From an uncultured Pseudomonadales bacterium (GTDB lineage: Bacteria > Patescibacteriota > Microgenomatia > UBA1400 > UBA12028): a DNA stretch of 64,000 bases. Positions 30,334 through 64,000 of this stretch are shown piece by piece. A program made the position numbers and the translations under genes. How positions within the stretch are numbered: position 1 is the first letter of the stretch; each line of letters begins with the position of its first letter. The stretch is taken from the NCBI GenBank assembly GCA_964509365.1, contig CAZDWN010000002.1, positions 3,701 through 67,700 on the forward strand, in the 5' to 3' direction. The notes below the pieces were generated by a model, which was given only the letters and a program-made list of their open reading frames with translations, searched no databases and was not told the origin of the DNA.

Positions 30334-31077
30334 ATGGAAGCTCCCAGAGATATTCTCCAAAATGCGGAACAGGCAAGAGAGCGTGGCAACACCGACACTG
30401 CTTTCGAGCTCTATGAATTGGCGTTGTCACTCGCCCTCTCACAGCATGACATCGCTGTGGCGTCTGAGATCTGTGCCGCAAAATCGATCTTAAGTCGCAG
30501 ACTTGCCACCGAGGCGACCACGACCGAAGAGCGCCATCGCATGATTGAGCGAGCGACTGCTGAAGTGAAATCATCGCTTCTTCATGCCCGTCACGCCGAA
30601 TTCATGAGAGATCTGACTGCTCTGCCACTTGCGTTGTTGGCGCAAGCGAAGTTGCGAGCTCTGAAAGGCGATATTGAAGGAGCGATCCAGTCACTCTCTG
30701 ATGCACCAACCTATTCGCTCGATAGTTTGCCAGAAGCTCATCGGTTTGAATCAAGATTGCTGTATCTGCAATTGGAGCGTGCGATCCTGAGACTAAAAAA
30801 TAATGAAGACGCAGAAGCAGATGTGCTTCGATTGGTAGATCTCCTTATCAAGGACACGGGCCCAGACTCACACTACAATATTCCAGTCTGGGTATCCGGC
30901 GCGTATCTCGCGCTCGCGGAATACTGGATCGACACATCGCATGCGACCATAGATATTCAAAAAGCAAAGCAGTATCTGGAACTTTGCGAAGACATATTAA
31001 AATTTGATAACAGGATGCTCTTGCGACAAAAAGATTTTGATCGCGTCCAAGCGAAAGTACTTGCCACTGCACCATGA
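30334..31077 (+). CDS. Hypothetical helical protein (TPR-like)
   Basis: 247 aa, Ala/Leu-rich helical. ATGA overlap with the ABC-F gene. Confidence 0.5.
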   Translation: MEAPRDILQNAEQARERGNTDTAFELYELALSLALSQHDIAVASEICAAKSILSRRLATEATTTEERHRMIERATAEVKSSLLHARHAEFMRDLTALPLALLAQAKLRALKGDIEGAIQSLSDAPTYSLDSLPEAHRFESRLLYLQLERAILRLKNNEDAEADVLRLVDLLIKDTGPDSHYNIPVWVSGAYLALAEYWIDTSHATIDIQKAKQYLELCEDILKFDNRMLLRQKDFDRVQAKVLATAP

Positions 31078-32555
31078 TCCGAGCCAAACACATTTCATTT
31101 TCTTACGGGTATGATCCAGTCTTTGTCGACTGTAGTTTTTCAGTAGTTCGCGGCGACAAAGTCGGAGTCGTTGGTCCAAATGGCGCTGGGAAATCGACGT
31201 TGTTTAAGATGCTTTCAAAGAAAGAGTTTCCGAGTGATGGCAGGATCGAGCTTGATGGCGCGCTATCGCTCGTCCCGCAAGAAGTGAAATATGATCCAGC
31301 GCTACGAGTAGCCAAGTCGATCTATGAGTACGTGGATCCGACCCATACGCACACTGAGAGTGAGATACATACCATCTTTGCAGGGCTCGAACTCCCATGG
31401 CAAACGCTCGGGCAAGATCTGTTGGCCCTAAGTGGTGGGCAAAAAACCAAACTTGCATTGACCCGTGCATTTTTGCAGCAGCCAGATATTTTATTGTTGG
31501 ATGAGCCAACAAACTTTTTGGATGATGCAGGCAAAAAATGGGTGATGGAATTTTTAGGAAAATATCCAAAGACTTTGGTGATCGTCTCGCATGATCTTGC
31601 GCTACTGGATCGCCATATAAAAAAAGTCCTGTATTTGAATAGTCAGACACACGGCATTGATACCTATCCAGGGAACTACAGCAAGTTTGTGAAGTTAAAA
31701 CAAATCAAGGAAGATGTGCTGACCAAACAGATCCACGCGGAGTCTCAGCACATCAAACAAATGGAGTTGGGATTGGCGAGGCTTCGCAAGAATACGTCCA
31801 AAAAAGGCGTCAGACAACGAGTGATCTTGGAGCGGCGTATCGACCGCATGAAAGACAAGCTGCCAGCGATGCCTGCCATCTTAAAAAGCTTTACTGCGAA
31901 ATTTATTGAACCAGTTTCTGTCGGCGCAGTTCCGTTGCGAGCCGAGCATTTGACCAAGTCATTTGGGGCCAATACGATCATCGATGATTTGACGATTGAG
32001 ATCTTTCGGGGTGAGACCCTAGCACTCATTGGTCCAAATGGTGTTGGGAAGACGACGCTGATTAAGATGCTCACGGGGACACTCGCTCCTGATGTGGGAA
32101 AAGTGATCGCCAGTGAGTCACTGCATCTTGGATATTACTCCCAAGAAAGTGTGATGCTTGATGATCGTCAGACGGTGTACGAAGCGGTCGAAGCGACAGG
32201 ACGGGTACCGCGAGAAAAAGTGTACGGGTTTCTCATGCGATTTTTATTTTCCAAAGAGCGACTCGGTCAACACATCGGCACACTGTCTGGAGGTGAAAAG
32301 ACGCGATTGTCGATCGCGCTGCTGATGACGCATCCTTACAATGTATTGGTCTTGGATGAGCCAACGACGTATTTGGATGTCATGAGCCAGCGCGTGATCT
32401 TGGAGGCGCTCAAAGCGTATGAAGGGGCGATGGTGCTCGTCAGTCATACCGAGGAATTTGTGACAGAACTCGCTCCCGAGCGCGTGCTCCTCCTCCCTTC
32501 TCAAAAAATCCGTGTCTGGTCGGATGAGTTCAAAGATGAAGTGAGCAAAATCTAA
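31074..32555 (+). CDS. ABC-F family ATPase (tandem ABC domains, no TMD)
   Basis: Two Walker A motifs (GPNGAGKST, GPNGVGKTT), two signatures (LSGGQKTKLAL, LSGGEKTRLSI), charged inter-domain linker. Confidence 0.85.
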   Translation: MIRAKHISFSYGYDPVFVDCSFSVVRGDKVGVVGPNGAGKSTLFKMLSKKEFPSDGRIELDGALSLVPQEVKYDPALRVAKSIYEYVDPTHTHTESEIHTIFAGLELPWQTLGQDLLALSGGQKTKLALTRAFLQQPDILLLDEPTNFLDDAGKKWVMEFLGKYPKTLVIVSHDLALLDRHIKKVLYLNSQTHGIDTYPGNYSKFVKLKQIKEDVLTKQIHAESQHIKQMELGLARLRKNTSKKGVRQRVILERRIDRMKDKLPAMPAILKSFTAKFIEPVSVGAVPLRAEHLTKSFGANTIIDDLTIEIFRGETLALIGPNGVGKTTLIKMLTGTLAPDVGKVIASESLHLGYYSQESVMLDDRQTVYEAVEATGRVPREKVYGFLMRFLFSKERLGQHIGTLSGGEKTRLSIALLMTHPYNVLVLDEPTTYLDVMSQRVILEALKAYEGAMVLVSHTEEFVTELAPERVLLLPSQKIRVWSDEFKDEVSKI

Positions 32556-51717: not shown

Positions 51718-52550
51718 ATGGATACCGCTCTAATTCAAATTCAAAAAAATCTAGACATGATTAAAAAAACTCAAGATGAACTTGAGTATTGGTCTGCTCG
51801 AGAACTGATGGTATTTTTGGGATATTCAAAATGGCAAACTTTTGAAGATGTACTTAAGAGAGCGAAAATTGCTTGTCAAAACAGCGACCAACCAATTAAA
51901 AACCATTTTATTGGCGCCAGTAAAATGGTCAAAACGGGATCGGGTGCTAAAAGAAATATCGAAGATGTTCTCCTCACTCGCTTCGCTTGTTATCTAGTTG
52001 CCCAAAATGGTGATCCTAGAAAGCCTCAGATTGCTTTGGCTCAGACCTATTTTGCCACACAAACTCGCAAACAAGAATTAATGCAGCAAAGAGATGAAGA
52101 AAACAAAAGACTGGATTCTCGCCTAAAATTAAAGGAAACCGAGCAAAAGATCGAGTCAACTGTCTATGAGAGAGGGATTCGATTGTCCATTGAATTTGAA
52201 CATTTAAAGATAAACATATTCGAGCTCTTTACGGTGGTATTTCGACCAAAGAACTCAAAGAGAAGCGAGGTATTCCGCTAACTCGCGCATTGGCCGATTT
52301 TGATACCGACGTTGAGTTACGAGCAAAAGATTCTGCTTTGGCAATGTCTGATCACAATATTAGACAAAAGAATCTCGCAGGGTCATTCAAATTAAATCAA
52401 GAAGTAGTTAAGAGCAGTAAAGCGACTAGACAGACTCTGCTTTCTCGTGGAATTCTGCCAGAAAAACTCAATGCACAAGAAGATTTGAGAAAAATTGAAG
52501 CGCGAAGAGTAAAAGAACTGCAAGTAGCGATTGATAAACGGATCAAGTAG
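51718..52550 (+). pseudogene. DinD/RhuM-family (DNA-damage-inducible protein D-like) gene interrupted by a frameshift near 52197..52212
   Basis: First ORF strongly resembles the DinD N-terminal/central part ('WSARELMVFLGYSKWQTFEDVLKRAKIAC...SGAKRNIEDVLLTRFACYLVAQNGDPRKPQIALAQTYFATQTRKQEL'). After a 1-nt frame change the 'LYGGISTKELKEKRG' continuation is read in the frame of ORF 52290..52550. A+T-rich. Confidence 0.6.
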
Positions 52551-52551
52551 T

Positions 52552-54015
52552 TTACTTTTCCAGATCGAGGATGCGATCGATGCGGATCTGACTGACAAAG
52601 TCAGGCACGTGCGAGATGAGGATCATCGCTCCTTGATAGTCATGGAGAGCTTTCGCGATGACTGGGAGGTGACGGAAATTGATGTGGTTGGTTGGTTCAT
52701 CCAGGATCAGGAGTCCTGGTTTTTGCAGCACGAGTCGTGCAAACGAGACCAATCCTTTTTGCCCTTCCGAGACATAGCCGATCCGAGTCTTCATCAGCTC
52801 TCCAGTGAGCAAGAATCCTGCTCCGACTGATCGTAGTTGCTGCTCATGCACCGGTTGCCCTGAAGTCTCCAGTGCTTCGACCAGTGACTCATAGATCGTA
52901 TGCTCGTAGTTGAGGGTTGAGAAATCTTGGCGGTAGTAGCCGACTGAGACTCCACTGGCGATTTTGGCTCCCGGAGATGCCCCCATTGCGATGGACTCGA
53001 TCAACGTACTCTTGCCGATCCCATTTGGACCAGCGATGAGCAAATGCTCTTTTTTCCCGAGGACGACGTGAGTTTCCTTCGTGATCTGTCGATGATCTTT
53101 CATGATCGTATAGGAGTCGATTGTGAGCACAGGACCGATGAGATCTTCTTGATAAGGGATCGTAAATGGGCGGATGGTTTTATCTTCTCGTCTGACATCG
53201 ACCATATTTTCTTCCAGCTCATCTGCTTTCTCGCGCATTTTTTTCGCTACGTTGCGCAATCGTCCGCCTTTGTGAGCGAAGTAGTTTGCTTTTTCTTTGT
53301 TCTCGATGGCTTCTTTGGTCAGTCGCGCGTTCTGGCGATTTTCCTTTTCGATTCGCGCTGCGATTTGCTCGATCACGTCAAAGTAATTGCCGACATATTG
53401 CTCTACTTTGTGAGAAAACGTATCGACGTAGAGCACTCCTTCGGTAAATGCATTCAAAAAGTCAGCGTCGTGAGAGATGATGAGCACCGATTTCTCATAA
53501 GTGATCAAAAAATTCATCAGATGAATAATTCCTGCCGGATCGAGATTGTTGGTCGGTTCATCGAGTAATAGCAGATCTGGATTCTGGATGAGTGCGGCAG
53601 CGAGCAAGAGTCTGGCTTGTTGACCACCCGAGAAGTCTTTGATTTTCTTATCGACAGGCGCGTGGAGATTGACGACTTCGAGGACCGCGAGGATCGCTCG
53701 ACGAAGTGGTGAGTCACGGAGGCCCGAGTATTTTTGAAAATACGCTTCGACCGAAAGTTCGAGATCATCGAGCGCCATCACTTGCCTAGCGGTCGCGACT
53801 TTCATGCTTTTATCGATGGAGATCTCGCCGGATTCTGGGCGGATCTCACGAGTCATGAGCTTGAAGATTGTGGACTTCCCAGCTCCATTTTGTCCCATGA
53901 GCGCGATTTTCATGTTTTGGCGCATGGAAAAATTCACCTCATCCAAGATGATTTTATTGAATTCAAACCGATGGGTCACGTTTGTGAAACGGACGATTGT
54001 GTCGTTTGCAGCCAT
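52552..54015 (-). CDS. ABC-F family ATPase (second paralog)
   Basis: Walker A 'GQNGAGKST' and 'GPNGIGKST', signatures 'FSGGQQARLLLAAAL'/'VSEGQKGLVSFARLVL', charged linker. Start at 'MAANDTIVRF'. The longer start at 54105 is possible. Confidence 0.8.
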   Translation of the reverse strand: MAANDTIVRFTNVTHRFEFNKIILDEVNFSMRQNMKIALMGQNGAGKSTIFKLMTREIRPESGEISIDKSMKVATARQVMALDDLELSVEAYFQKYSGLRDSPLRRAILAVLEVVNLHAPVDKKIKDFSGGQQARLLLAAALIQNPDLLLLDEPTNNLDPAGIIHLMNFLITYEKSVLIISHDADFLNAFTEGVLYVDTFSHKVEQYVGNYFDVIEQIAARIEKENRQNARLTKEAIENKEKANYFAHKGGRLRNVAKKMREKADELEENMVDVRREDKTIRPFTIPYQEDLIGPVLTIDSYTIMKDHRQITKETHVVLGKKEHLLIAGPNGIGKSTLIESIAMGASPGAKIASGVSVGYYRQDFSTLNYEHTIYESLVEALETSGQPVHEQQLRSVGAGFLLTGELMKTRIGYVSEGQKGLVSFARLVLQKPGLLILDEPTNHINFRHLPVIAKALHDYQGAMILISHVPDFVSQIRIDRILDLEK

Positions 54016-54079
54016 AACTCTTTCTTGAGGGAAAAAATAAGCACACAGGTGAGCTGTTATTTTACCACACGTAGCGATG

Positions 54080-54292
54080 TCACTTGTCTTCCATGTGATT
54101 GACAATTGCTTGGCCGAGCGAGGATCCTGATTTTTTCAGATTCTTGAGTGCCCAGTGATAGTCCGCTCTAGCATCTTGAATGATAGCCTGATCGGAACCT
54201 AATAGAATCACCTCCAGGAGACGTTGGACACTTAAGGCCAGAGCTGCTTCTGCTTCGAGCGCCTTTGTACTTGGATCCTTTTCATGTGACAT
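54080..54292 (-). CDS. Small hypothetical protein between the 659-aa gene and ABC-F
   Basis: 70-aa ORF, helical. Co-oriented in an apparent operon. Confidence 0.35.
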   Translation of the reverse strand: MSHEKDPSTKALEAEAALALSVQRLLEVILLGSDQAIIQDARADYHWALKNLKKSGSSLGQAIVNHMEDK

Positions 54293-54325
54293 AATGCACC
54301 AATTCTATCACTTTGATTGACCTTT

Positions 54326-56305
54326 TCATTTCTTCATATACAAGGCTTCAAGCTCACGATGCGATACGATTGCAAACACAGAAGCATTTCCTTCTAAGCC
54401 GTTTTCTTGCGCCAAAATTCGAAAGTTCTTGTCATATCGAATTGCCCACACTGGGTTACCCGGGTTGGGTCCGGCGATGCGCGAGTAGACTTTGACGACA
54501 CAGCCACCTCTATTTGCACGGTCGAGTGTCGCTTTGAGTCGCGACGGACTCACTTCCGCTTTACTACTCACAAAATTCAATGGAAATTCAAACTGCGGTC
54601 GATAGCGCGACTGCAGGATTTGTTCCTCAAAAGAATGAGGAGCGTTCTCAAGTGCATGTGCATTTTTGTCGCGCTGCGACCTTGCCGTTTTTGGTGACTT
54701 CATCTGCTCTGGCCCTTTTGGCTTAATTTTATGGACCGAAATTGGGTTGGTGTATTCTTTGGACTGCGTTTTTGATTCTTGACGATTCGACGTGATTTTT
54801 TTGGCGTTGAGTTTGAGGATGTTGGCGACGATCCCTGCGAAGCAATTTTCCAAGAATTCATCTTCTCGCTCGTCGTCAATGACACGAAGATAGATTTTTG
54901 GAGGGTCCATGAAGAGGTCAAGTGCGACCGTCATTTCGGTAAAACCCGCGGCTTTGAGAGGCTCGGATGGCGAATAATTCTCTACTGCGTTGCTATCATG
55001 TACGAAGAATATTTGAAAATAGATTACGTCATCTATTTTCTTTGCCTGAGTCGTCAAACGCTCCGTGGGTATTTTTAATCCGGAGACGCCGACGTCGAGC
55101 AGCTGCGTCGATTTATGTGATAATTTGAGTTTTTCGACATTGGTGCGCACTTCATCCCAATCGACGGGATCTTCCTTGTCTTCAGGATCAAAGTATTTCC
55201 GCATTGCGTCTTTCGTAATGACGATCATATCGGTCTGGTTTTCAAAAAACACTCTGATGTGAGCCGCAATGTTTGAATAGAGAGGGTTTGGACTGTCGGC
55301 TGCAATTATCGTCACTGATCGATACAGCGAGGCAATATCCAAATCAAGGTGAACTCCTCGAAGTGCGGCTCCTCTGGCGATAAATTCATACCATTCATCT
55401 TCATTGAGAGTAAGTGACGTTGTATGGACAAGGGAATTCAGAAGTTTGACTGCATCTTCATGGCGAGGATCATCGTCGTCCATCAATGAGCCATAGGTTT
55501 GCATGATGATGTTTTCAAAGAGCAAATAGAGTTGTGTGGCCAGAGATTTCTCTTTTGACTCTGCGGAATGTCGTTTCAATACACTGAGTGCTTCATTTTT
55601 TGGCGCGAGTAAAAAGGTTTTCAAGAAGTTTGTGAGTGTTGGTGAAGCATTTGTTTGCAGGAGGTGTGTGAGGAGTTCGGCAACTCGTTTGTATTGATCG
55701 ACGGACTCAGTGTCATCGCCAATTTTTTTTCGTGCTTCACTCGATAGTATGTCGTATACCCCAAATATTTCAGAGAGTTTCTTCGGTTGGCCAAGTTCAT
55801 GCGAAAGTTCACGAACAGGGATCTTCGTCCACTTTGGCATTTGATAGATGATGGCGTCATCTAGTGCATTCTCAAATTGTTGATGCAATTGAGACAGGAG
55901 TGCAATTCCGCTTTCGGCAAATGACACTGAAGATGCGAACGATTGCATTTCCCATTCAAAGGTCTGATAGTCTTGCTCAATGGCTGGCTTATCATCAAGA
56001 TTGAGAGTGTGGCGCCTGGCTGTAACTTTTTGAAACGATAAATAGGATTTGCAAAATGCTGTAGCGAGATTGTTGACGTTGAGGATGTTTCGTTTTCGCA
56101 CTGCTTCCATGAATAGCGCATTCACATTTGTCGCCGATTGGATCTCAGCATCTGCTTTTGCTTTCTGATTTGATGCAAATTGTATGGCAGCTTCTTCTTT
56201 CGTTGTCTGGTCAGTGAGTGTGAGCACTCGGTTCTCAGATTTGCCACCGAGATTTTGCTCGGGAAAAGATTTAGAAGGATCGAAGTGTAACCGTTCGTTT
56301 GCCAT
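54326..56305 (-). CDS. Large hypothetical protein with RelE/YoeB-like C-terminal ~60 aa
   Basis: 659-aa ORF. C-terminal 'VWAIRYDKNFRILAQ...ASVFAIVSHRELEALY' resembles the YoeB 'FWSRRITEEHRLVYAV...LLIAACRYHY' core. The rest is unassigned. Confidence 0.6.
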   Translation of the reverse strand: MANERLHFDPSKSFPEQNLGGKSENRVLTLTDQTTKEEAAIQFASNQKAKADAEIQSATNVNALFMEAVRKRNILNVNNLATAFCKSYLSFQKVTARRHTLNLDDKPAIEQDYQTFEWEMQSFASSVSFAESGIALLSQLHQQFENALDDAIIYQMPKWTKIPVRELSHELGQPKKLSEIFGVYDILSSEARKKIGDDTESVDQYKRVAELLTHLLQTNASPTLTNFLKTFLLAPKNEALSVLKRHSAESKEKSLATQLYLLFENIIMQTYGSLMDDDDPRHEDAVKLLNSLVHTTSLTLNEDEWYEFIARGAALRGVHLDLDIASLYRSVTIIAADSPNPLYSNIAAHIRVFFENQTDMIVITKDAMRKYFDPEDKEDPVDWDEVRTNVEKLKLSHKSTQLLDVGVSGLKIPTERLTTQAKKIDDVIYFQIFFVHDSNAVENYSPSEPLKAAGFTEMTVALDLFMDPPKIYLRVIDDEREDEFLENCFAGIVANILKLNAKKITSNRQESKTQSKEYTNPISVHKIKPKGPEQMKSPKTARSQRDKNAHALENAPHSFEEQILQSRYRPQFEFPLNFVSSKAEVSPSRLKATLDRANRGGCVVKVYSRIAGPNPGNPVWAIRYDKNFRILAQENGLEGNASVFAIVSHRELEALYMKK

Positions 56306-56406
56306 AGAAAGCCAATAACTAAATGACAGCAGATTATATCACGCCTCGAGTGAATGGAGTGTATTCTTCGATGGCCATGCCCTCTAGTTTCAGCTAGAAT
56401 AGCCAA

Positions 56407-57627
56407 ATGAAGCGAAGTGAGAGTGACCAGTTGGCATTTGATTTGGAGCCTGAGTTCTCAGTCTCAGAGTTTTTAGATCTCCTCAATGGGACATTTGGTG
56501 CTCGTGAGTTTACGGTCATCGGTGAGATCGCGGAGGTGAATGTCCGCGGCAAAGCAGTGTACATCAAGCTCAAAGACAAAGCCGATGGTTCGACGCTGGA
56601 GACGATCCTATGGACGTACAATGCGCGTCGACTGGGTTTTGATCCGACGGAAGGACAAGAAGTCAAAGTCGTCGGCAAAGTACAGATCTACAAGCCGTAT
56701 GGCAAACTCTCGCTGATCATCTCGCATATCTCACCACTGGGTGAAGGTGCTCTCAAAGCTGCTTTTGAAAAACTCAAAAAAGATTTGGAAGCTCGAGGAT
56801 ATTTTGATGAAGCTCGCAAACGCGAACTTCCAGCATATCCCTCACATATTGGATTGATCACCTCGCGGATGGGTGATGCGCGCAAAGATTTCCTCACGCA
56901 TTTAGCTCCATATTGGATTCGAGTATCGTTTTTGGATGCACGAGTAGAAGGAGTGAGTGCCATCGATAGTATCGTGAGTGCACTACATGAGTTCAATCGT
57001 CTTCCCGCGTCAGTTGATTTGATTGTCCTCACACGTGGTGGCGGCAGTATCGAGAGTCTCCAAGCTTTCAATTCCTACGAAGTAGCTCAAGCTATTTTTA
57101 GTTCTCGGATCCCTGTCGTCTCAGCGGTCGGGCATGAAAATGATATTACGATCGCGGACCTCGTCGCTGATGTGCGAGCCTCCACACCGACGCACGCGGG
57201 TCAGCTGGTCAGTCGTGGCTATGTGGATGCTGCGAGTGAGTTATCTTTGCTGCACGCTCGTCTGATCAACAACTTCGCATCACTGCTCTCCAATTTCCGA
57301 TTGACGACAGAGATGTTTACGCGCAATAGCACGGCCATTCTTCGCACGGTCCGTGACAAACAGCAGCAGTTGCTCACTCTCTCTACTCGGCTTGATTCAG
57401 ATATTCGCATGACATTGACTCGGTCGTTAGAAAGACTAGAGGCCCAAGCGACCTTACTTGATTCCAATGATCCCGAGAAGAAAATATCGCAAGGATATTC
57501 GATCGTCCGTGACAGTTCTGGCCATGTGGTCAAAGATCCGACACAGCTTCGAGCCGATGATATACTCATGCTTCGCATGAAACAGGCAGTGGTCAGTACA
57601 CAAGTATCCGAGGTAACGCCGCTATGA
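56407..57627 (+). CDS. xseA: Exodeoxyribonuclease VII large subunit
   Basis: N-terminal OB-fold 'REFTVIGEIAEVNVRGKAVYIKLKD', central catalytic region, C-terminal coiled-coil. Confidence 0.85.
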   Translation: MKRSESDQLAFDLEPEFSVSEFLDLLNGTFGAREFTVIGEIAEVNVRGKAVYIKLKDKADGSTLETILWTYNARRLGFDPTEGQEVKVVGKVQIYKPYGKLSLIISHISPLGEGALKAAFEKLKKDLEARGYFDEARKRELPAYPSHIGLITSRMGDARKDFLTHLAPYWIRVSFLDARVEGVSAIDSIVSALHEFNRLPASVDLIVLTRGGGSIESLQAFNSYEVAQAIFSSRIPVVSAVGHENDITIADLVADVRASTPTHAGQLVSRGYVDAASELSLLHARLINNFASLLSNFRLTTEMFTRNSTAILRTVRDKQQQLLTLSTRLDSDIRMTLTRSLERLEAQATLLDSNDPEKKISQGYSIVRDSSGHVVKDPTQLRADDILMLRMKQAVVSTQVSEVTPL

Positions 57628-57917
57628 AAAATATGCACGTCAATTTCACCGATGCGATGAAAGAGCTTGCTGAGATCAATGCGTGGTTCGCCCGCTCCGA
57701 TATCGATTTGGATGAAGCGATGGAGAAACTCAAGCGAGGTAATTTTCTCATCAAAGAATGTAGGAAGAAACTTGTCCAAGTGGAAAATGAGTTTGAAGAG
57801 ATTCAAAAAGACTCAGTGGATGAGTCTGAAAGTACCGTGGACGCCACCATCGTCATTGCCGCAGAGTCGGATACCAGTGATGTTACTGCTGATTCCGCGG
57901 ACGACATGCCGTTTTAG
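57624..57917 (+). CDS. xseB: Exodeoxyribonuclease VII small subunit
   Basis: 97-aa helical protein with ATGA overlap to xseA. 'FEDAMKELAEI...LDEAMEKLKRGNFLIKECRKKL'. Confidence 0.8.
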   Translation: MKNMHVNFTDAMKELAEINAWFARSDIDLDEAMEKLKRGNFLIKECRKKLVQVENEFEEIQKDSVDESESTVDATIVIAAESDTSDVTADSADDMPF

Positions 57918-58378
57918 CGACTCAAAATTGCAATTCTTCGCAAGTGTTCTTGTAAGAACGGGTCAAGATACGTTGAAAGCGTGCCATCCTCATTTGTAGT
58001 TACACCACTTTTGAGATGTGTTCCCTTCATATCTTCATTGAGAAGTTGTGCCCGCATGATGCAGAGTTGGTCATAACAGTCTTGGTGAAACCTTAATTTA
58101 TCTTCAGGCGACATGCCATTCGCATTGAATTCAGGGTGTAGTTTGCTGATGCGGCTCTCCAAATATGCTATTCGCGCGTCAGTGTGTGCGATCAAGACTC
58201 CATTTTGAGCTTTGTGAAGGAGCATGTTGGCATTTGGATTCGGAAGAGCTGAGAGTTTTTCATCCAAGTCTTTTGCGACCATGCTGATTTTTAAGAGTCC
58301 AGAAAGTTCTTGCAACATTGATTCCATTTCATCAGATTGAGCGTGTTCATGGTTTGTCATATCTTCGGATTGTATCAC
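57914..58378 (-). CDS. Hypothetical protein, distal gene downstream of hsdR
   Basis: 154-aa ORF. 4-nt convergent overlap with xseB. Confidence 0.45.
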   Translation of the reverse strand: MIQSEDMTNHEHAQSDEMESMLQELSGLLKISMVAKDLDEKLSALPNPNANMLLHKAQNGVLIAHTDARIAYLESRISKLHPEFNANGMSPEDKLRFHQDCYDQLCIMRAQLLNEDMKGTHLKSGVTTNEDGTLSTYLDPFLQEHLRRIAILSR

Positions 58379-58384
58379 CAGTCA

Positions 58385-58633
58385 CTAGCTTTGATCCGCG
58401 GTTTCCAAGATTGCCAATCCTTTCGCGACGATCTCAGCGAGCGCGATCGTCTCGGTGCGCTCCACATCCGTGAGCAGATCCAGTTTCGGCCAGAGTTTCT
58501 CGACTTTGTCTCTGATCTTGTAGATATCATCACGAAATTCATCCCGAAGTTCTTTCGAGTCTTGGAGCTTTTTCATGAACTTCACGACATCCTTTTTGTC
58601 GCTCGTGCTCAGATCCACATTTTTTTTTGGCAT
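58385..58633 (-). CDS. Small hypothetical protein 23 nt downstream of hsdR
   Basis: 82-aa charged helical ORF. Confidence 0.45.
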   Translation of the reverse strand: MPKKNVDLSTSDKKDVVKFMKKLQDSKELRDEFRDDIYKIRDKVEKLWPKLDLLTDVERTETIALAEIVAKGLAILETADQS

Positions 58634-58656: not shown

Positions 58657-61569
58657 TTACTTAAATTTCTTAATAACTACATCAACTAGTCTGTTTAGTA
58701 ATTTTGGAAATACCGTAGCATCAACCGAATCTTTGTAATTTTTAAGGAGCACTTCCTGAATTGTCTGCTTTATTGATTTTATGAACTCTTCTCTCTTTGA
58801 AGAATTTTGCCAGTTCGTATCAAGATTTGCGTTCAACTCATACGTTAGTGTATGAGTAATATCACCAAGTTTTTCGTCTTTCTGATCTGTAATGAACTCT
58901 TGTAAAAGTCTAAAAATACCCATCTCTTGCAGAGAAAAACCTAATGCCTTGGCCTCCTCATGTTTAGTTTTCATGTCGTCGAGCAGGTGATAGTATCGTT
59001 TAATCCGTTCAGATAAATCGATTTGCTGTTTTTCAAACTCTTCCTTAATCACTGCCAGCCGTTCACTAAATTTTAAGAAGCTTGGATCAGAATCTATCTG
59101 TATACGAAGTTCATGTTGAATAATTCTTTCTAATTGGATTGCTTTCTCTTCCTGAGAATCATTGGTCAATTTGTTTAAGACATAAATATCGTTGACCGTA
59201 AGTTCTCTGAAATTGCGTGTAATTCCTTCATAATCAATCTTATCCTGAATGATTTTCTTCACTTTTTCTCCATATTCAGCGAGTATTTCGTTATCATTTT
59301 CTGGAGATCTGTAGGTTTTCACAAACGCAAGATAAAAGGATGTGATCCACTCGAAACGTCGCAAATACGGAAGTAAAAAAGGGTCAGGAGACAAAATCTC
59401 ATAATACATGCGCAAGGAACTATAACGGTCAACAAAGTAATTTTGTTTTTGCTCATTATCCGAAAAGATCTTGAGCGCTCGACGAAGATTTTCCATCGAA
59501 GGATCTTCTATCGAGATAGTAATAAAGAGCTCCATTACTTGATCAATAGTTTCTGAAAATTGATCCTTTATTTTGGCAATGTTGACCAATGCAGCATCGA
59601 CGATACTCTCATCAAAGTTTAATGAGTCGTATAGGTTTTTTGTTATTCCATAATAATCAATTATTCTTCCACAACCTTTATTGGGGTAAACTCTGTTTGT
59701 TCTTGCTATCGCCTGAAGCAGATTATGATCGCGTAATGGTTTATCGAGGTACATCACTTGTTCAATAGGGGCATCAAAGCCAGTCAGTAACATATCGCAC
59801 ACAATCAAAAATCGAATTGAGCCTTGTGCATCTTTAAATCTGGAGATGATATCCTCACGCTCTTGTTTGCTTGTGTGATGCAGCTTGAGGTCTTCATTTT
59901 CAGTATTGGGATCACCCGGGGAGTAGACTACTACTGACCACTCTGTGGGGATCAATGTATCGAGGAGTGATTTATACTTTGCTGCAGATTCGCGATCGTA
60001 GCATACGAGCTGCGCTTTAAATCCATTTGGCTCCACATAGAGTCTAAAGTGCTCGACAAGATCTTTCGCAATTGTTTCCATCCGCTTGTCAAGTTTTATT
60101 AGCGCTGCTTTCTTGCCATATTTTCGCATGAGTATGTCTTTTTGCTCTGAGGACAGATCAGTTGTCAGTGAATCGAACTGCTCGTCTACTTTTTGCTCAT
60201 CAATCGAAAACTTCGAAAGCCTGGCTTCATATGTCACAGGTAATGTTGCTCCATCGTCAATCGCCTGCTGGATGGAGTAATAATCTAAGTATCTTTCTCC
60301 GACCTCTCCAAAATTTCTATGAGTATTGAGTGTTGTTTTGTCTATTGGAGTACCCGTAAATCCAAAGAAAAATGCATTGTGCATGGAAGATCTCAAATGG
60401 ATGGCTGACACTCCTTCGTTGTCACGATGTGCTTCATCAGACAGTACAATAATATTTTCATTGTGATTCACTATAGTGCTGCTCAATTCACTAAATTTCT
60501 GAACAGTTGAGATAAATATTCCACGCTGCGGACTTTGAATCTTTTGTTCCAGGTCTTTCCTAGAGGTCACGCGAATTACATTTTCGCCACCGCAATGAAT
60601 GAACGTGTCGTGTATCTGATCGTCGAGATCAATGCGGTCGACAAGGACGAACACTTTTGGATTTTTAAGCTTTGGGTCAAAACGCAGTTTCCACGCTGAA
60701 AAAAACATAGTGAGGCTTTTTCCTGATCCCTGAGTGTGCCAGATTAGTCCTTTTCTTTTCTCGCCATTTTGAACTCGTTCCACGATTTTGTTGGTTGCTC
60801 GTACCTGCTGATATCTAGCGATCTTCTTCTCTTTTCCAGTCTTGGTTTTCTCAAAGACAATGAAGTTATCGATGAGATCAAGCACATTTTTCGGATCCAA
60901 TAACGAAAAGAGTGTCATCTCCAAAGATCCTCCAAGGTCGGTCTCGAGTTTCTCATCTTTCCACTGTAAAAACGACTGAAGTGGAGCGTATGTAGCGCCA
61001 TACATTGTTTGCAGTCCATCTGTGGCAATGTTGAAACAATTTGGCAGAAAGAGGCGTGGAGCATTTTTTTCATATCTCTTCAGTTGACCGACAGCGAGTG
61101 AGTAGTCGACGACTATACTGGCTGTCGGACTTTTCGCTTCGATATCGACGACAGGTATGCCATTGATGAAGACGAGAATATCTGGGCGTATGTTTTCTAG
61201 CGTCCCTTCAAAATAGAACTGGTTGGTGATCACAAACCGATTGTTGCCTTGCTTTGCCACGTCGATGACACGGTAGTCTTGCATCTTCCCCGTTTGCTGA
61301 TTCTTGATATTAATGCCATCACGAAACAATTTGAGAAAAGACTCGTTGCTGTCGATCTTTCGAATTTCTCGCAGCACACTGGCTGCCTCATCGTCATCGA
61401 TGGCATTGATTTTTTTGATTGCGTCAGTCAAATGAGAGGTTATGAGTAATTCATTCTCAAATTCACGAAGTTTTGAGAACTGTTCTGGTGGAATATACTC
61501 ATACCCCAGCGTCTTTGTGAGGAACTTGATGATATGTCTCTCCACTGTATATTCTTCGTTAAATTTCAT
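58657..61569 (-). CDS. hsdR: Type I restriction enzyme R (endonuclease/helicase) subunit
   Basis: 970 aa. N-terminal nuclease region. SF2 helicase Walker A 'HTQGSGKSLTM', 'LSDEAHR' DEAH box, helicase C-terminal motifs. A+T-rich. Confidence 0.9.
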   Translation of the reverse strand: MKFNEEYTVERHIIKFLTKTLGYEYIPPEQFSKLREFENELLITSHLTDAIKKINAIDDDEAASVLREIRKIDSNESFLKLFRDGINIKNQQTGKMQDYRVIDVAKQGNNRFVITNQFYFEGTLENIRPDILVFINGIPVVDIEAKSPTASIVVDYSLAVGQLKRYEKNAPRLFLPNCFNIATDGLQTMYGATYAPLQSFLQWKDEKLETDLGGSLEMTLFSLLDPKNVLDLIDNFIVFEKTKTGKEKKIARYQQVRATNKIVERVQNGEKRKGLIWHTQGSGKSLTMFFSAWKLRFDPKLKNPKVFVLVDRIDLDDQIHDTFIHCGGENVIRVTSRKDLEQKIQSPQRGIFISTVQKFSELSSTIVNHNENIIVLSDEAHRDNEGVSAIHLRSSMHNAFFFGFTGTPIDKTTLNTHRNFGEVGERYLDYYSIQQAIDDGATLPVTYEARLSKFSIDEQKVDEQFDSLTTDLSSEQKDILMRKYGKKAALIKLDKRMETIAKDLVEHFRLYVEPNGFKAQLVCYDRESAAKYKSLLDTLIPTEWSVVVYSPGDPNTENEDLKLHHTSKQEREDIISRFKDAQGSIRFLIVCDMLLTGFDAPIEQVMYLDKPLRDHNLLQAIARTNRVYPNKGCGRIIDYYGITKNLYDSLNFDESIVDAALVNIAKIKDQFSETIDQVMELFITISIEDPSMENLRRALKIFSDNEQKQNYFVDRYSSLRMYYEILSPDPFLLPYLRRFEWITSFYLAFVKTYRSPENDNEILAEYGEKVKKIIQDKIDYEGITRNFRELTVNDIYVLNKLTNDSQEEKAIQLERIIQHELRIQIDSDPSFLKFSERLAVIKEEFEKQQIDLSERIKRYYHLLDDMKTKHEEAKALGFSLQEMGIFRLLQEFITDQKDEKLGDITHTLTYELNANLDTNWQNSSKREEFIKSIKQTIQEVLLKNYKDSVDATVFPKLLNRLVDVVIKKFK

Positions 61570-61571
61570 AG

Positions 61572-62420
61572 TTACTTCTTTTTCTCAAGTAGCTTCTTCA
61601 TCTTATCAGTAAACGTCTTGGCCTTACTTTTTCTAGTTTGAATTTCCTCTACGAGATAGATCAAAATATTTTTAATATTATCTGCTGACTCCAAACATTC
61701 TTCGTCTGTTCTATTATGGAGCCCATCGCTCAATGATGAATGTAGGAGCTTTAGCGGATTGTTGCCATTAGGCTGTAAGGATGTTGGAAGAAGATCTTGG
61801 ACTAGTTCGATCTTTTGTTCGGCAACTCGAGTTTTTTTGACTTGATCCAGTGCATCTTTATATTTTCCTTTGTCTTCCTCATCAATAAGATCCTCGACGG
61901 ATATTAGAAGTTCGTCTATTATCTTTTCGGTAATTTGTCGGAAGTATGCATACGCACCGATTCCATAACTCTCTGATTCGCAAACGAGCCCTTTCTTGTA
62001 AAGGTCGGCATGCTCACCGAGCGTCTTTTCTAGTTTTGGGTCCATGTCTATTTCCCACTGAGGTGTTTGCCCAATTTTTTGAACGCTGCCACTGTAATAA
62101 ATGGTGCCATTCTTTTCAGCTTTAGTCTTTAGTGAAAATAATACGTAGAAGTGATAAAAATAGGAATTACAGGCCGAACACAAATACCTCATTCGTATAG
62201 GAACTCCCCAAACATCAATAGTTTTAGCTCCATATTCATTTGATGCAAGGATCTCCCAGATTTCGTTACTTATATTAAACGTTTGGACGGAACCACAACT
62301 CTTGCAGTACATATTAATTGCAGGGGTGGATATGTCATCGAGCTGCGTATTGTAGTAAGGCTCATCGACTTTTAGCTTTCGATAAAGTGGATACGTTTCT
62401 AAAAACTCTTTTGTGATCAT
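61572..62420 (-). CDS. Hypothetical protein embedded between hsdS and hsdR, with N-terminal CxxC...CxxC zinc-finger-like motif (possibly DUF4145-like)
   Basis: 282-aa ORF overlapping hsdS by 4 nt and 2 nt from hsdR. 'CKSCGS...CSACNS'. C-terminal region reminiscent of DUF4145 accessory proteins of R-M loci (recollection, uncertain). Confidence 0.55.
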   Translation of the reverse strand: MITKEFLETYPLYRKLKVDEPYYNTQLDDISTPAINMYCKSCGSVQTFNISNEIWEILASNEYGAKTIDVWGVPIRMRYLCSACNSYFYHFYVLFSLKTKAEKNGTIYYSGSVQKIGQTPQWEIDMDPKLEKTLGEHADLYKKGLVCESESYGIGAYAYFRQITEKIIDELLISVEDLIDEEDKGKYKDALDQVKKTRVAEQKIELVQDLLPTSLQPNGNNPLKLLHSSLSDGLHNRTDEECLESADNIKNILIYLVEEIQTRKSKAKTFTDKMKKLLEKKK

Positions 62421-63559
62421 ATGTCTGCCTTTCTCCCAAATATCTCTTTCATAATTCCTGATTTTGTATTCCTCAGTGTAAATTGAGCTTTCCTTTCCAA
62501 CTCGATCTTTTGATCCAATGTATATAAAAGGTCGGCGATTTTCTTCTGTTCCTCAATGGGTGGAAGTGGAATTTTGATCTTCTTAAAAAATGATAAGCCA
62601 ATGGTTTTTATCGTGGAACCCGATGCTATTTGCTCAAAAACTGGCTTCCTGTGCTGAAGAATGTAATAAAGGAATAGGTTGTTTAACCTTTCTCCACACC
62701 TCCAGGCAATGAAATGCTGGCTAACTGCCATTGGTTCAGTTGTTATTGCACTTTTTCCAATACCGGCATCCCTAGATAAGACGACAACCCCTTCGGGATG
62801 CATAACTGCAGAAGAATGCTCAATCCCTTCCTGAGAAATCTGCTTTGATGTCTGTGAAATGTATACCCGGTCGAGTCTAAAGGTGTCTGAAAGAGATATC
62901 CACTTAATTCCTCCATTCCAATAATTTGGAAATGTTTTATTTGGAGTATGACCACTCCCTCTTTTGGCAACGTGATCTAATAATTCAACTTCCCAATTTT
63001 CAGGAATACTGCCAATCTCAGTTTTCTTAAAATCTGTATGCCCAATGCCTTTGGTCAAAAGTTCCTGCATCAAGCCTTGCTTTAGTTCTTCTGTCTTTTG
63101 AATAGTTTGATCTGTGATGCTAATGGCGTTATCAACGATTTCTAATTCACTCGCGATTTTCTTCTGTACACTACGTGCGGGGAGTGAAATCTCTAATTTA
63201 TAAACATCATCCCTGTTAAGTCCAGGTACACCTGTCCCTCGATTCATCTTGCCTAGCTCGAGTGTTTGGAGCATGAAATAAATCCATTTAAGATCCACCA
63301 TATCACTTTCAGTAATGTAGTAGGTGGTATCAATCGGCCAAAAAGGTTCGTCAGACCATTCAAGCTTTCCTATACTCCCTTTTCTACCGACAATTATTCC
63401 TTTTGTGTTTACAAGACTATTTCCATTCGTCCCTACGATTCCATTAGAGCCATATACAGGAATATCTCCAGGAGTCCTTTTTTGGGAAGGCAAATTCTTA
63501 CCATATTCAAGTTTTAAGATGTCTCCAATTTTTATCTTTTTCAAATTTTGAGTTGACAT
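62417..63559 (-). CDS. hsdS: Type I restriction-modification specificity subunit
   Basis: 380 aa with two target-recognition domains separated by a conserved helical spacer ('LKQGLMQELLTKG') and a C-terminal conserved helix. Confidence 0.85.
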   Translation of the reverse strand: MSTQNLKKIKIGDILKLEYGKNLPSQKRTPGDIPVYGSNGIVGTNGNSLVNTKGIIVGRKGSIGKLEWSDEPFWPIDTTYYITESDMVDLKWIYFMLQTLELGKMNRGTGVPGLNRDDVYKLEISLPARSVQKKIASELEIVDNAISITDQTIQKTEELKQGLMQELLTKGIGHTDFKKTEIGSIPENWEVELLDHVAKRGSGHTPNKTFPNYWNGGIKWISLSDTFRLDRVYISQTSKQISQEGIEHSSAVMHPEGVVVLSRDAGIGKSAITTEPMAVSQHFIAWRCGERLNNLFLYYILQHRKPVFEQIASGSTIKTIGLSFFKKIKIPLPPIEEQKKIADLLYTLDQKIELERKAQFTLRNTKSGIMKEIFGRKADI

Positions 63560-63563
63560 AGGT

Positions 63564-64000
63564 TTAAGTTTCTTCGCCGGAATAGAGTTCGACTGTTTCG
63601 TGCAACTTCTTCACTCTACTTTTTGCGCCTGAAATACCATCAAATGCTGGGAGTTTCTCAGGCATGGTGCCACCGATCTCTTGGATGGCTTTGCGCACTT
63701 GCCTCCCGACTTCAAAGTGCGTTTGATTTGCTCTCGCCTCACCCTTGATGTTTTCTCGTTTAAGCTTGGCATCTGCTTGTGTTGCGCGAAACAAATTGGC
63801 AGCAAGTTCTTCGCTGCCCATGTGGTCGAGTATGCCTTGACTCTTTTTCAAACCTTTTAATGTATGGATATCCTGCGATGTGAGCCCTGCATACAATCCT
63901 TTGTATCCGTAATTGGTAAAAACACCGTAGTTTTTGACACCTGCTCTGCTGGCAGTCTCCGCAAGATGTTTGTTGTGTGCGGTAATCTCATCGCGAAGCA
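63564..64000 (-). CDS. DinD/RhuM-family protein, 3' part. The gene continues beyond the window end
   Basis: Translation upstream of the tabulated ORF stays open to the window edge. 'LRDEITAHNKHLAETASRAGVKNYGVFTNYGYKGLYAGLTSQDIHTLKGLKKSQGILDHMGSEELAANLFRATQ...THFEVGRQVRKAIQEIGGTMPEKLP' closely parallels the E. coli DinD C-terminal half as I recall it. Confidence 0.7.
   Translation of the reverse strand, partial: LRDEITAHNKHLAETASRAGVKNYGVFTNYGYKGLYAGLTSQDIHTLKGLKKSQGILDHMGSEELAANLFRATQADAKLKRENIKGEARANQTHFEVGRQVRKAIQEIGGTMPEKLPAFDGISGAKSRVKKLHETVELYSGEET

Follow-up and report, generated by a model that had tools for sequence, protein, structure and literature searches.

Whether three closely spaced genes form one toxin, antitoxin and ribosome-rescue operon, or have come to lie side by side by chance, is the question raised by a locus in a 64,000-nucleotide stretch of contig CAZDWN010000002.1 (positions 3,701 to 67,700, assembly GCA_964509365.1; GTDB lineage Patescibacteriota; Microgenomatia; UBA1400; UBA12028), hereafter the window. 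The genes lie on its minus strand and encode, in order of transcription, a 659-amino-acid protein (p659; 54326..56305), a 70-amino-acid product (orf70; 54080..54292) and a 487-amino-acid ABC-F ATPase (52552..54015). A first-pass annotation of the window took them for an operon in which p659 would be a ribosome-dependent mRNase toxin with a RelE/YoeB-like C-terminus, orf70 its antitoxin and the ABC-F a dedicated rescue or immunity partner. We favour, with a probability of roughly 0.55, a chance juxtaposition of a core ABC-F gene, a rare, self-contained multidomain conflict protein with a RelE fold and an orphan small gene. The locus would then comprise three independent transcription units instead of a toxin, antitoxin and rescue operon.

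The layout that gave rise to the operon proposal was reproduced from the open reading frame (ORF) list: the three genes are co-oriented, with gaps of 33 nt between p659 and orf70 (54293-54325) and 64 nt between orf70 and the ABC-F gene (54016-54079). The second gap is given for an ABC-F start at ATG 54015, which is backed by full-length alignment to 22 orthologues; the longer start in the ORF list (TTG 54105) would overlap orf70. No terminator was found in either intergenic gap. Co-orientation, short gaps and the lack of a predicted terminator between the genes favour the proposed operon, as do the RelE-like fold predicted for the C-terminal domain of p659 and the fact that ABC-F proteins act on ribosomes (PMC6723617). 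In compact genomes such as these, short same-strand gaps alone do not indicate an operon. p659 is P0001 in the family alignment discussed below, where its relatives are P0005, P0006 and P0007.

A link between the ABC-F gene and p659 is not supported

Orthologues of the ABC-F gene were examined at 22 Patescibacteria loci (46–86% identity), of which 17 include 2 kb or more of upstream flank. At none of the 22 was p659-family sequence detected by tblastn or by hidden Markov models (HMMs; A1 and A2) built from the full-length and C-terminal alignments, and an ABC-F neighbour was found at none of the three other p659-family loci (L001, L002 and L041). The closest relative recovered, a metagenome-assembled genome (MAG) labelled Candidatus Woesebacteria, has an ABC-F protein 86% identical to that of the window and carries both genes on one contig (JBDTWD010000001.1), the ABC-F gene at ~52.6–54.0 kb and that for P0005 at ~112.5–114.5 kb, ~58 kb apart. 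Failure of the homologues to co-localise had been named beforehand as the outcome that would count against a link to the ABC-F, and co-occurrence fails in both directions. The ABC-F therefore loses the role of linked rescue or immunity partner that it had been given. No paper linking an ABC-F protein to a toxin–antitoxin system was found in the literature.

Comparison with the ABC-F locus of the closest relative (L003) indicates how the arrangement may have come about. The two sequences are collinear, at near-identical contig coordinates, from ~44380 up to the ABC-F gene and diverge completely beyond it. Downstream of the ABC-F gene, an LCP gene is syntenic between them (60% identity); upstream, the relative has unrelated genes, with neither p659 nor orf70. 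Nucleotide homology stops at window position 54070, 3 nt past a conserved GTGTGGTAAAAT block, and judged by this alignment p659 and orf70 sit exactly at a synteny breakpoint. As part of our preferred explanation, and with the same degree of belief, the position of the ABC-F gene beside p659 and orf70 would result from this breakpoint. The proteins themselves have diverged to very different extents, since p659 and P0005 are 28% identical in the same two genomes whose ABC-F and LCP proteins are 86% and 60% identical, respectively. This disparity fits a fast-evolving or horizontally moving p659 gene and, at the level of sequence, is in keeping with something other than simple vertical descent.

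Each gene is preceded by its own promoter-like element

The extended -10-like motif TGNTANAAT has 10 matches in the window, three of which lie directly upstream of p659, orf70 and the ABC-F gene. All three are on the minus strand: TGATATAAT (56333..56341) is 27 nt upstream of the p659 ATG, TGATAGAAT (54302..54310) is 9 nt upstream of the orf70 ATG, and TGGTAAAAT (54059..54067) lies in the conserved GTGTGGTAAAAT block ahead of the ABC-F gene and is identical in L003. Boxes of a similar kind (TGnTAnnnT) precede many ABC-F orthologues, and we regard the TGGTAAAAT box as the putative promoter of the ABC-F gene itself. No inverted-repeat (palindromic) operator was found at the promoters.

The operon assignment is not borne out by these observations, as each gene is preceded by its own TGNTANAAT element and that of the ABC-F gene is kept in a relative without the two upstream genes. 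The lack of co-occurrence, the conserved promoter box and the synteny break together describe a conserved, separately promoted ABC-F gene abutting a breakpoint. With the 86% against 28% conservation in the same genomes and the lack of literature precedent added, they make the arrangement of p659 as toxin, orf70 as antitoxin and the ABC-F as dedicated partner in one operon very improbable. Immunity to, or rescue from, a ribosome-dependent toxin by means of an ABC-F protein would, if true, be a new principle; comparative genomics does not support it.

The -10-like boxes of the region also bear on how its transcripts begin. A TAGAAT box ends 6 nt before the ATG of xseA (56395-56407, plus strand) and another 9 nt before the ATG of orf70 (minus strand), and no Shine-Dalgarno sequence is evident at the xseA and orf70 starts. 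As far as can be judged from sequence, this points to transcripts that are leaderless, or nearly so, in this genome.

Identity of the ABC-F ATPase

The identification of the third gene as the second ABC-F gene of the window stands. Its product has two ABC_tran (PF00005) domains, aligns over residues 7-482 with the 'ribosomal protection-like ABC-F' model NF000355 (309.7 bits, under the cut-off of 380) and is 31% identical to the paralogue encoded at 31074-32555. Two nucleotide-binding domains (NBDs) with a helical linker, and no membrane domain, are present as in the ABC-F family. No named housekeeping subfamily model was reached at its cut-off, nor did any of the antibiotic resistance (ARE) models (Sal, Vga, Msr, Lsa, OptrA, CplR and producer type) reach theirs; scores and cut-offs were 225/599 for EttA, 217/725 for Sal, 185/725 for Vga, 185/680 for Msr, 147/750 for Lsa and 139/1450 for OptrA. 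The best relatives in the Protein Data Bank (PDB), namely PoxtA, YheS, YbiT and EttA, are about equally similar. The protein thus resembles EttA, YbiT, YheS, Uup and the ARE ABC-F proteins (PoxtA, Vga, Lsa and Msr) in its architecture of two NBDs plus linker but falls below the cut-off of each named subfamily, and nothing ties it to a toxin.

Apart from the Woesebacteria sequence, orthologues came from MAGs that bear labels such as Saccharibacteria, Peregrinibacteria and Paceibacterota. These labels place the window in a Patescibacteria (CPR) genome, and on sequence grounds the ABC-F gene belongs to a Patescibacteria-wide clade. A survey of ABCF proteins makes no mention of lineages of the candidate phyla radiation (CPR) (PMC6723617). 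We suggest that the gene would be a vertically inherited, housekeeping-type translation ABC-F, expressed from its own extended -10 element in the 64-nt gap.

p659 belongs to a very rare family

Searches with p659 against Pfam, NCBIfam, PHROGs, PADLOC and PDB sequences were all empty, which bears out the earlier description of a protein with no recognisable domains. An exhaustive HMMER scan of 1.84 billion cluster representatives returned three relatives only: P0005 (660 aa; E 2e-59 at 28% identity), P0006 (C-terminal only, 171 aa, from a contig of 929 bp) and P0007 (617 aa, E 4e-4). Neither the single p659 sequence nor the family alignment found anything except p659 itself in a word-indexed search of 5.8e9 proteins. 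No further members were recovered from genome contigs (query P0001), metagenome contigs (A2 and A5) or viral contigs (A2 and P0007), and plasmid and phage collections searched by tblastn had no match either. The codon score of p659 (0.172) is in the coding range.

Conservation within the family is concentrated at one end of the protein. Variability is greatest in the N-terminal part, whose residues 1-114 have no aligned counterpart in P0005, and least in the C-terminal part; the invariant columns of the four-sequence alignment fall mostly in the last third and include N598, G600, K605, G612-P613, I622, R629-I-L-A632 and A641. P0006 (L041, 1-536) is preceded by an in-frame TAA, and the few residues before this stop are still family-like (KLN...), so that P0006, on its 929-bp contig, may represent a linker-plus-RelE-like form that stands alone, or else a disrupted gene. 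An alternative genetic code was considered for this stop and rejected, as UGA recoding is no explanation for a TAA. The p659 coding sequence contains, at 55015-55040, a 13-nt inverted repeat without spacer (GAAAATAGATTAC/GTCATCTATTTTC), the arms of which are 92% complementary.

Three regions can be distinguished along the protein, all encoded on the minus strand. Residues 1-506 (54788..56305) form an acidic N-terminal region, for which an AlphaFold2 (AF2) model of low to moderate confidence is helical at ~36-360 and has a beta-sheet and a long helix at ~400-506. Residues 507-558 (54632..54787) are a basic K/P/Q-rich linker (pI 10.1, net charge +6) that is predicted to be disordered (predicted local distance difference test, pLDDT, 25–40) and has KG and R positions invariant across the family. 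Residues 559-659 (54329..54631) make up a domain of pI 9.7 for which AF2 and Foldseek predict a RelE/ParE (BECR) fold. Net charge is about -20 over residues 1-506 and about +11 over linker and C-terminal domain, and P0005 has the same polarity; by analogy, this polarity is the pattern of an antitoxin–toxin pair within one chain. The full-length AF2 model has a pLDDT of 52.8, and its N-terminal region gave no confident Foldseek match; YbjN-like and helical-repeat matches of that region were disregarded given their probability (≤0.4) and the low confidence of the model.

The C-terminal domain has a predicted RelE/ParE fold

Modelled alone, the last 105 residues of p659 gave a pLDDT of 76.6 and a predicted template modelling (pTM) score of 0.70, with the elements in the order helix, strand, helix, four strands and C-terminal helix. 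Over the domain itself (residues 559-659) the modelled topology is beta-alpha-beta4-alpha, which corresponds to the BECR fold with its N-terminal strand, helical hairpin, antiparallel three- to four-stranded sheet and optional C-terminal helix. The top Foldseek matches of the domain model in the PDB were almost only RelE-superfamily toxins, the best being HP0892/HP0894 of H. pylori, RelE of T. thermophilus and P. horikoshii, and YafQ, with RelE1-3 of M. tuberculosis, YoeB, ParE, HigB and the RelE domain of Cami1 among the others (probability up to 0.97, E 0.04–0.6, TM 0.45–0.51). For the full-length model, the only high-probability matches were RelE and YafQ, on the C-terminal domain (probability 0.93, TMt 0.54). 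From these models we consider it probable that the C-terminal domain of p659 has a RelE/ParE-type fold.

Sequence methods returned no counterpart of this result. The C-terminal ~100 aa of all four members had no Pfam match at E ≤ 10, phmmer and hmmsearch against the PDB with p659 sequences and profiles gave no RelE-type match, and alignment of the family with a profile of 23 E. coli RelE-family sequences by hhalign was not significant (probability 0.7%, P 0.083), which leaves p659 with no significant sequence match to the RelE/ParE superfamily. The RelE/YoeB-like C-terminus of the first-pass annotation thus gains moderate support as a predicted fold in two independent models and finds no backing in Pfam, PDB sequence or hhalign searches. 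The YoeB/RelE motif on which that call had been based was recovered in part: W..R.....RIL is present, as WAIRYDKNFRIL, but the spacing to HR is 17 residues instead of 11 and that from HR to Y is 5 instead of 3, and HR...Y occurs only in the window protein, P0005 and P0006 having EFKSE and P0007 PRRDL at that place.

The non-significant hhalign alignment nevertheless runs in the structurally expected register (FEFP-LDFD, VWAIR-YKIKL, FRILAQ-YRLVYQ and VFAI-VFVI). In this register, R629 is the equivalent of RelE R61 and is invariant in the family, the equivalent of K54 is R/R/R/K in the four members, and the K80/R81 region keeps a basic residue.

We suggest as the most likely mechanism that p659 would be a self-contained conflict or defence effector, one of a Patescibacteria family that is very rare, diverges fast and occurs in variable or mobile-element contexts. 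The basic linker would tether the conserved RelE/ParE-fold core to the large acidic helical and alpha/beta N-terminal region, which would hold or sense, as an intramolecular antitoxin-like part; on release, the RelE-like domain would act upon mRNA or the ribosome during translation. That p659 is toxic, that it targets the ribosome and that it is autoinhibited is what we infer here.

Several points weigh against this interpretation and, more generally, against a chance meeting of a conflict protein with an independent ABC-F gene. The fold call rests on AF2 models from four sequences (pLDDT 76.6), and the Foldseek scores are weak (E 0.04; maximum TM 0.51 for the domain model and 0.54 for the full-length model). 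In the same non-significant register, the equivalent of RelE K52 is A/A/A/E and that of Y87 occurs in the window protein only, and with these two positions not conserved catalytic competence is uncertain. As catalytic residue sets vary among RelE subfamilies, the pattern is compatible with activity as well as with its loss. The low confidence of the N-terminal model makes autoinhibition speculative. A family of only four members leaves the co-occurrence statistics thin on the p659 side, and, with no terminator in either gap, read-through from p659 or orf70 into the ABC-F gene is possible.

Part of this evidence would also suit a C-terminal domain that is no toxin, being either an inactive RelE-fold module that binds RNA, the ribosome or a protein, or a false-positive fold, in a mobile-element or lineage-specific protein of unrelated function. 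The unconserved K52 and Y87 equivalents, the lack of a significant sequence relationship to any RelE/ParE family and a Foldseek E of 0.04 at best all agree with such a domain, as does the lack of a conserved antitoxin partner, and a solo gene kept in small genomes is awkward for an unneutralised toxin. However, both models retrieve RelE-superfamily toxins as top matches, an Arg is invariant at the R61 position with two other active-site positions basic, and the domain is both basic and the most conserved region of a protein whose genomic contexts are of the conflict-system type. We hold a non-toxin domain to be rather unlikely.

orf70 is probably a real, locus-specific gene

The codon log-odds of orf70 is 0.108 in frame, against -0.26 to -0.42 for the five remaining frames. 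For a true 70-codon window this score is on the low side, yet it clearly exceeds off-frame values, which makes orf70 probably a real gene. Its product is mildly acidic (pI 5.8) and forms a singleton cluster in a collection of 15 billion proteins. No homologue was found in the 41 loci or in viral contigs, and no counterpart lies beside P0005, P0007 or P0006, whose downstream neighbours are a convergent gene for a 173-aa protein, a convergent gene and a gene for an unrelated membrane protein, respectively. The conserved, adjacent and co-transcribed antitoxin that characterises a type II module was not found, and orf70 has its own -10-like box. As far as sequence searches reach, orf70 is an orphan specific to this locus. 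It could modulate p659 or act as its local partner, or do neither, and nothing conserved speaks for such a role.

A more limited alternative keeps p659 and orf70 together as a locus-specific two-gene toxin–antitoxin or toxin–immunity pair, to which the ABC-F is unrelated. With the toxin first and a small neutraliser behind it, the gene order is that of HigBA or of polymorphic-toxin/immunity pairs, the gap between the two is 33 nt, and a coding-like orf70 of pI 5.8 faces a C-terminal domain of pI 9.7; a protein with a large N-terminal region and a BECR-type domain at its C-terminus, followed by a small ORF, also resembles polymorphic toxin loci. The relatives do not share this arrangement, however, as the genes downstream of P0005 and P0007 are convergent and P0006 is followed by the unrelated membrane protein. 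orf70 has no homologue in the searched collections, no operator-like palindrome occurs at either promoter, and p659 has no secretion or trafficking domain or signal peptide. A conserved C-terminal and a variable N-terminal part are, moreover, the opposite of what polymorphic toxins have. We consider such a pair improbable.

Genomic context

The preferred reading of p659 as a self-contained conflict protein places the family in variable or mobile surroundings, and the neighbourhoods of P0005 and p659 are in line with this. That of P0005 (L001, 1-21983) encodes a PIF1 helicase, DUF2779, a DUF87/TraG-like ATPase, Replic_Relax, Fic-MerR and DUF2958 and holds two toxin–antitoxin pairs (YafQ-like and BrnT/BrnA); by its gene content it looks like an integrated mobile element. 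In the window, p659 is located between the ABC-F gene and the divergently transcribed housekeeping pair xseA/xseB, across which, ~2.4 kb away, lies a low-GC type I restriction-modification block (58657-63896, minus strand; GC 0.39–0.41). This block encodes an HsdR of 970 aa, an HsdS of 380 aa, a partial specificity-like ORF of 110 aa and a 282-aa protein (61572-62420) with no Pfam or PADLOC match. No tRNA was found flanking the p659 region as an integration site.

Two orphan ORFs of 154 and 82 aa (57914-58633) lie between the restriction-modification block and xseB. On the other side of the locus, a gene of the type of DinD (DNA-damage-inducible protein D), with a Bro-N domain (51718-52550, plus strand; GC 0.38), ends head-to-tail against the ABC-F stop codon. 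It is broken into one ORF that corresponds to the N-terminal part of NF008573 (51718-52281) and a second that corresponds to the C-terminal part (52290-52550); from this split it is probably a pseudogene. Nothing in the syntenic region of L003 matches, at the nucleotide level, the stretch from the ABC-F to the LCP gene in which the DinD-like gene lies.

Comparison with known systems and implications

In canonical type II systems, the toxin is a stand-alone protein of ~85–100 aa with a conserved adjacent antitoxin, encoded in an autoregulated bicistronic operon. p659 is like RelBE, YefM-YoeB, DinJ-YafQ and HigBA in the predicted fold and strand order of a basic domain with an Arg at the R61 position. 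In contrast to these, its domain ends a protein of 659 aa, shows no significant sequence similarity and has an incomplete RelE catalytic set, and for want of a conserved partner p659 is not a canonical type II module. Nor is it a polymorphic toxin: a trafficking domain is missing, no gene is conserved downstream, and the conserved part is the C-terminal one, which in polymorphic toxins varies.

A closer likeness is found among multidomain proteins of the BECR fold, a class that includes fused toxin–antitoxin proteins, PtuZ and the transmembrane ToxM, and of which many cases without an identifiable antitoxin or with too few members were left unanalysed (Gerdes 2025, PMC11980606). The fused toxin–antitoxin proteins and PtuZ (PMC11980606), together with Cami1 (CARF-RelE, PDB 8phj/8phb), share with p659 a C-terminal RelE-type domain and an N-terminal part thought to be regulatory or neutralising. 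They differ in that the N-terminal ~500 aa of p659 match no antitoxin, PIN, CARF or other known domain. Those proteins were found through Pfam membership, whereas the C-terminal domain of p659 is detected by no Pfam RelE/ParE model, and no associated CRISPR, Ptu or other partner genes accompany p659. In how it would work p659 is most like the multidomain RelE/ParE-fold proteins, yet it falls in no Pfam RelE/ParE family and its N-terminal architecture is undescribed.

We tentatively propose, as a possibility on the doubtful side of even, that the p659 family is an undescribed single-gene conflict system of Patescibacteria (CPR). In such a system, an acidic N-terminal sensor or neutraliser would be joined through a basic disordered linker to a highly divergent RelE-fold ribosome-dependent RNase that is missed by RelE/ParE profiles; it would reside in mobile or variable regions, with orf70 as a possible accessory modulator. 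If the fold and the effector role hold true, the set of multidomain RelE/ParE-fold proteins would gain an architecture invisible to sequence methods, and p659 would be a rare case of a candidate conflict system peculiar to Patescibacteria with their reduced genomes.

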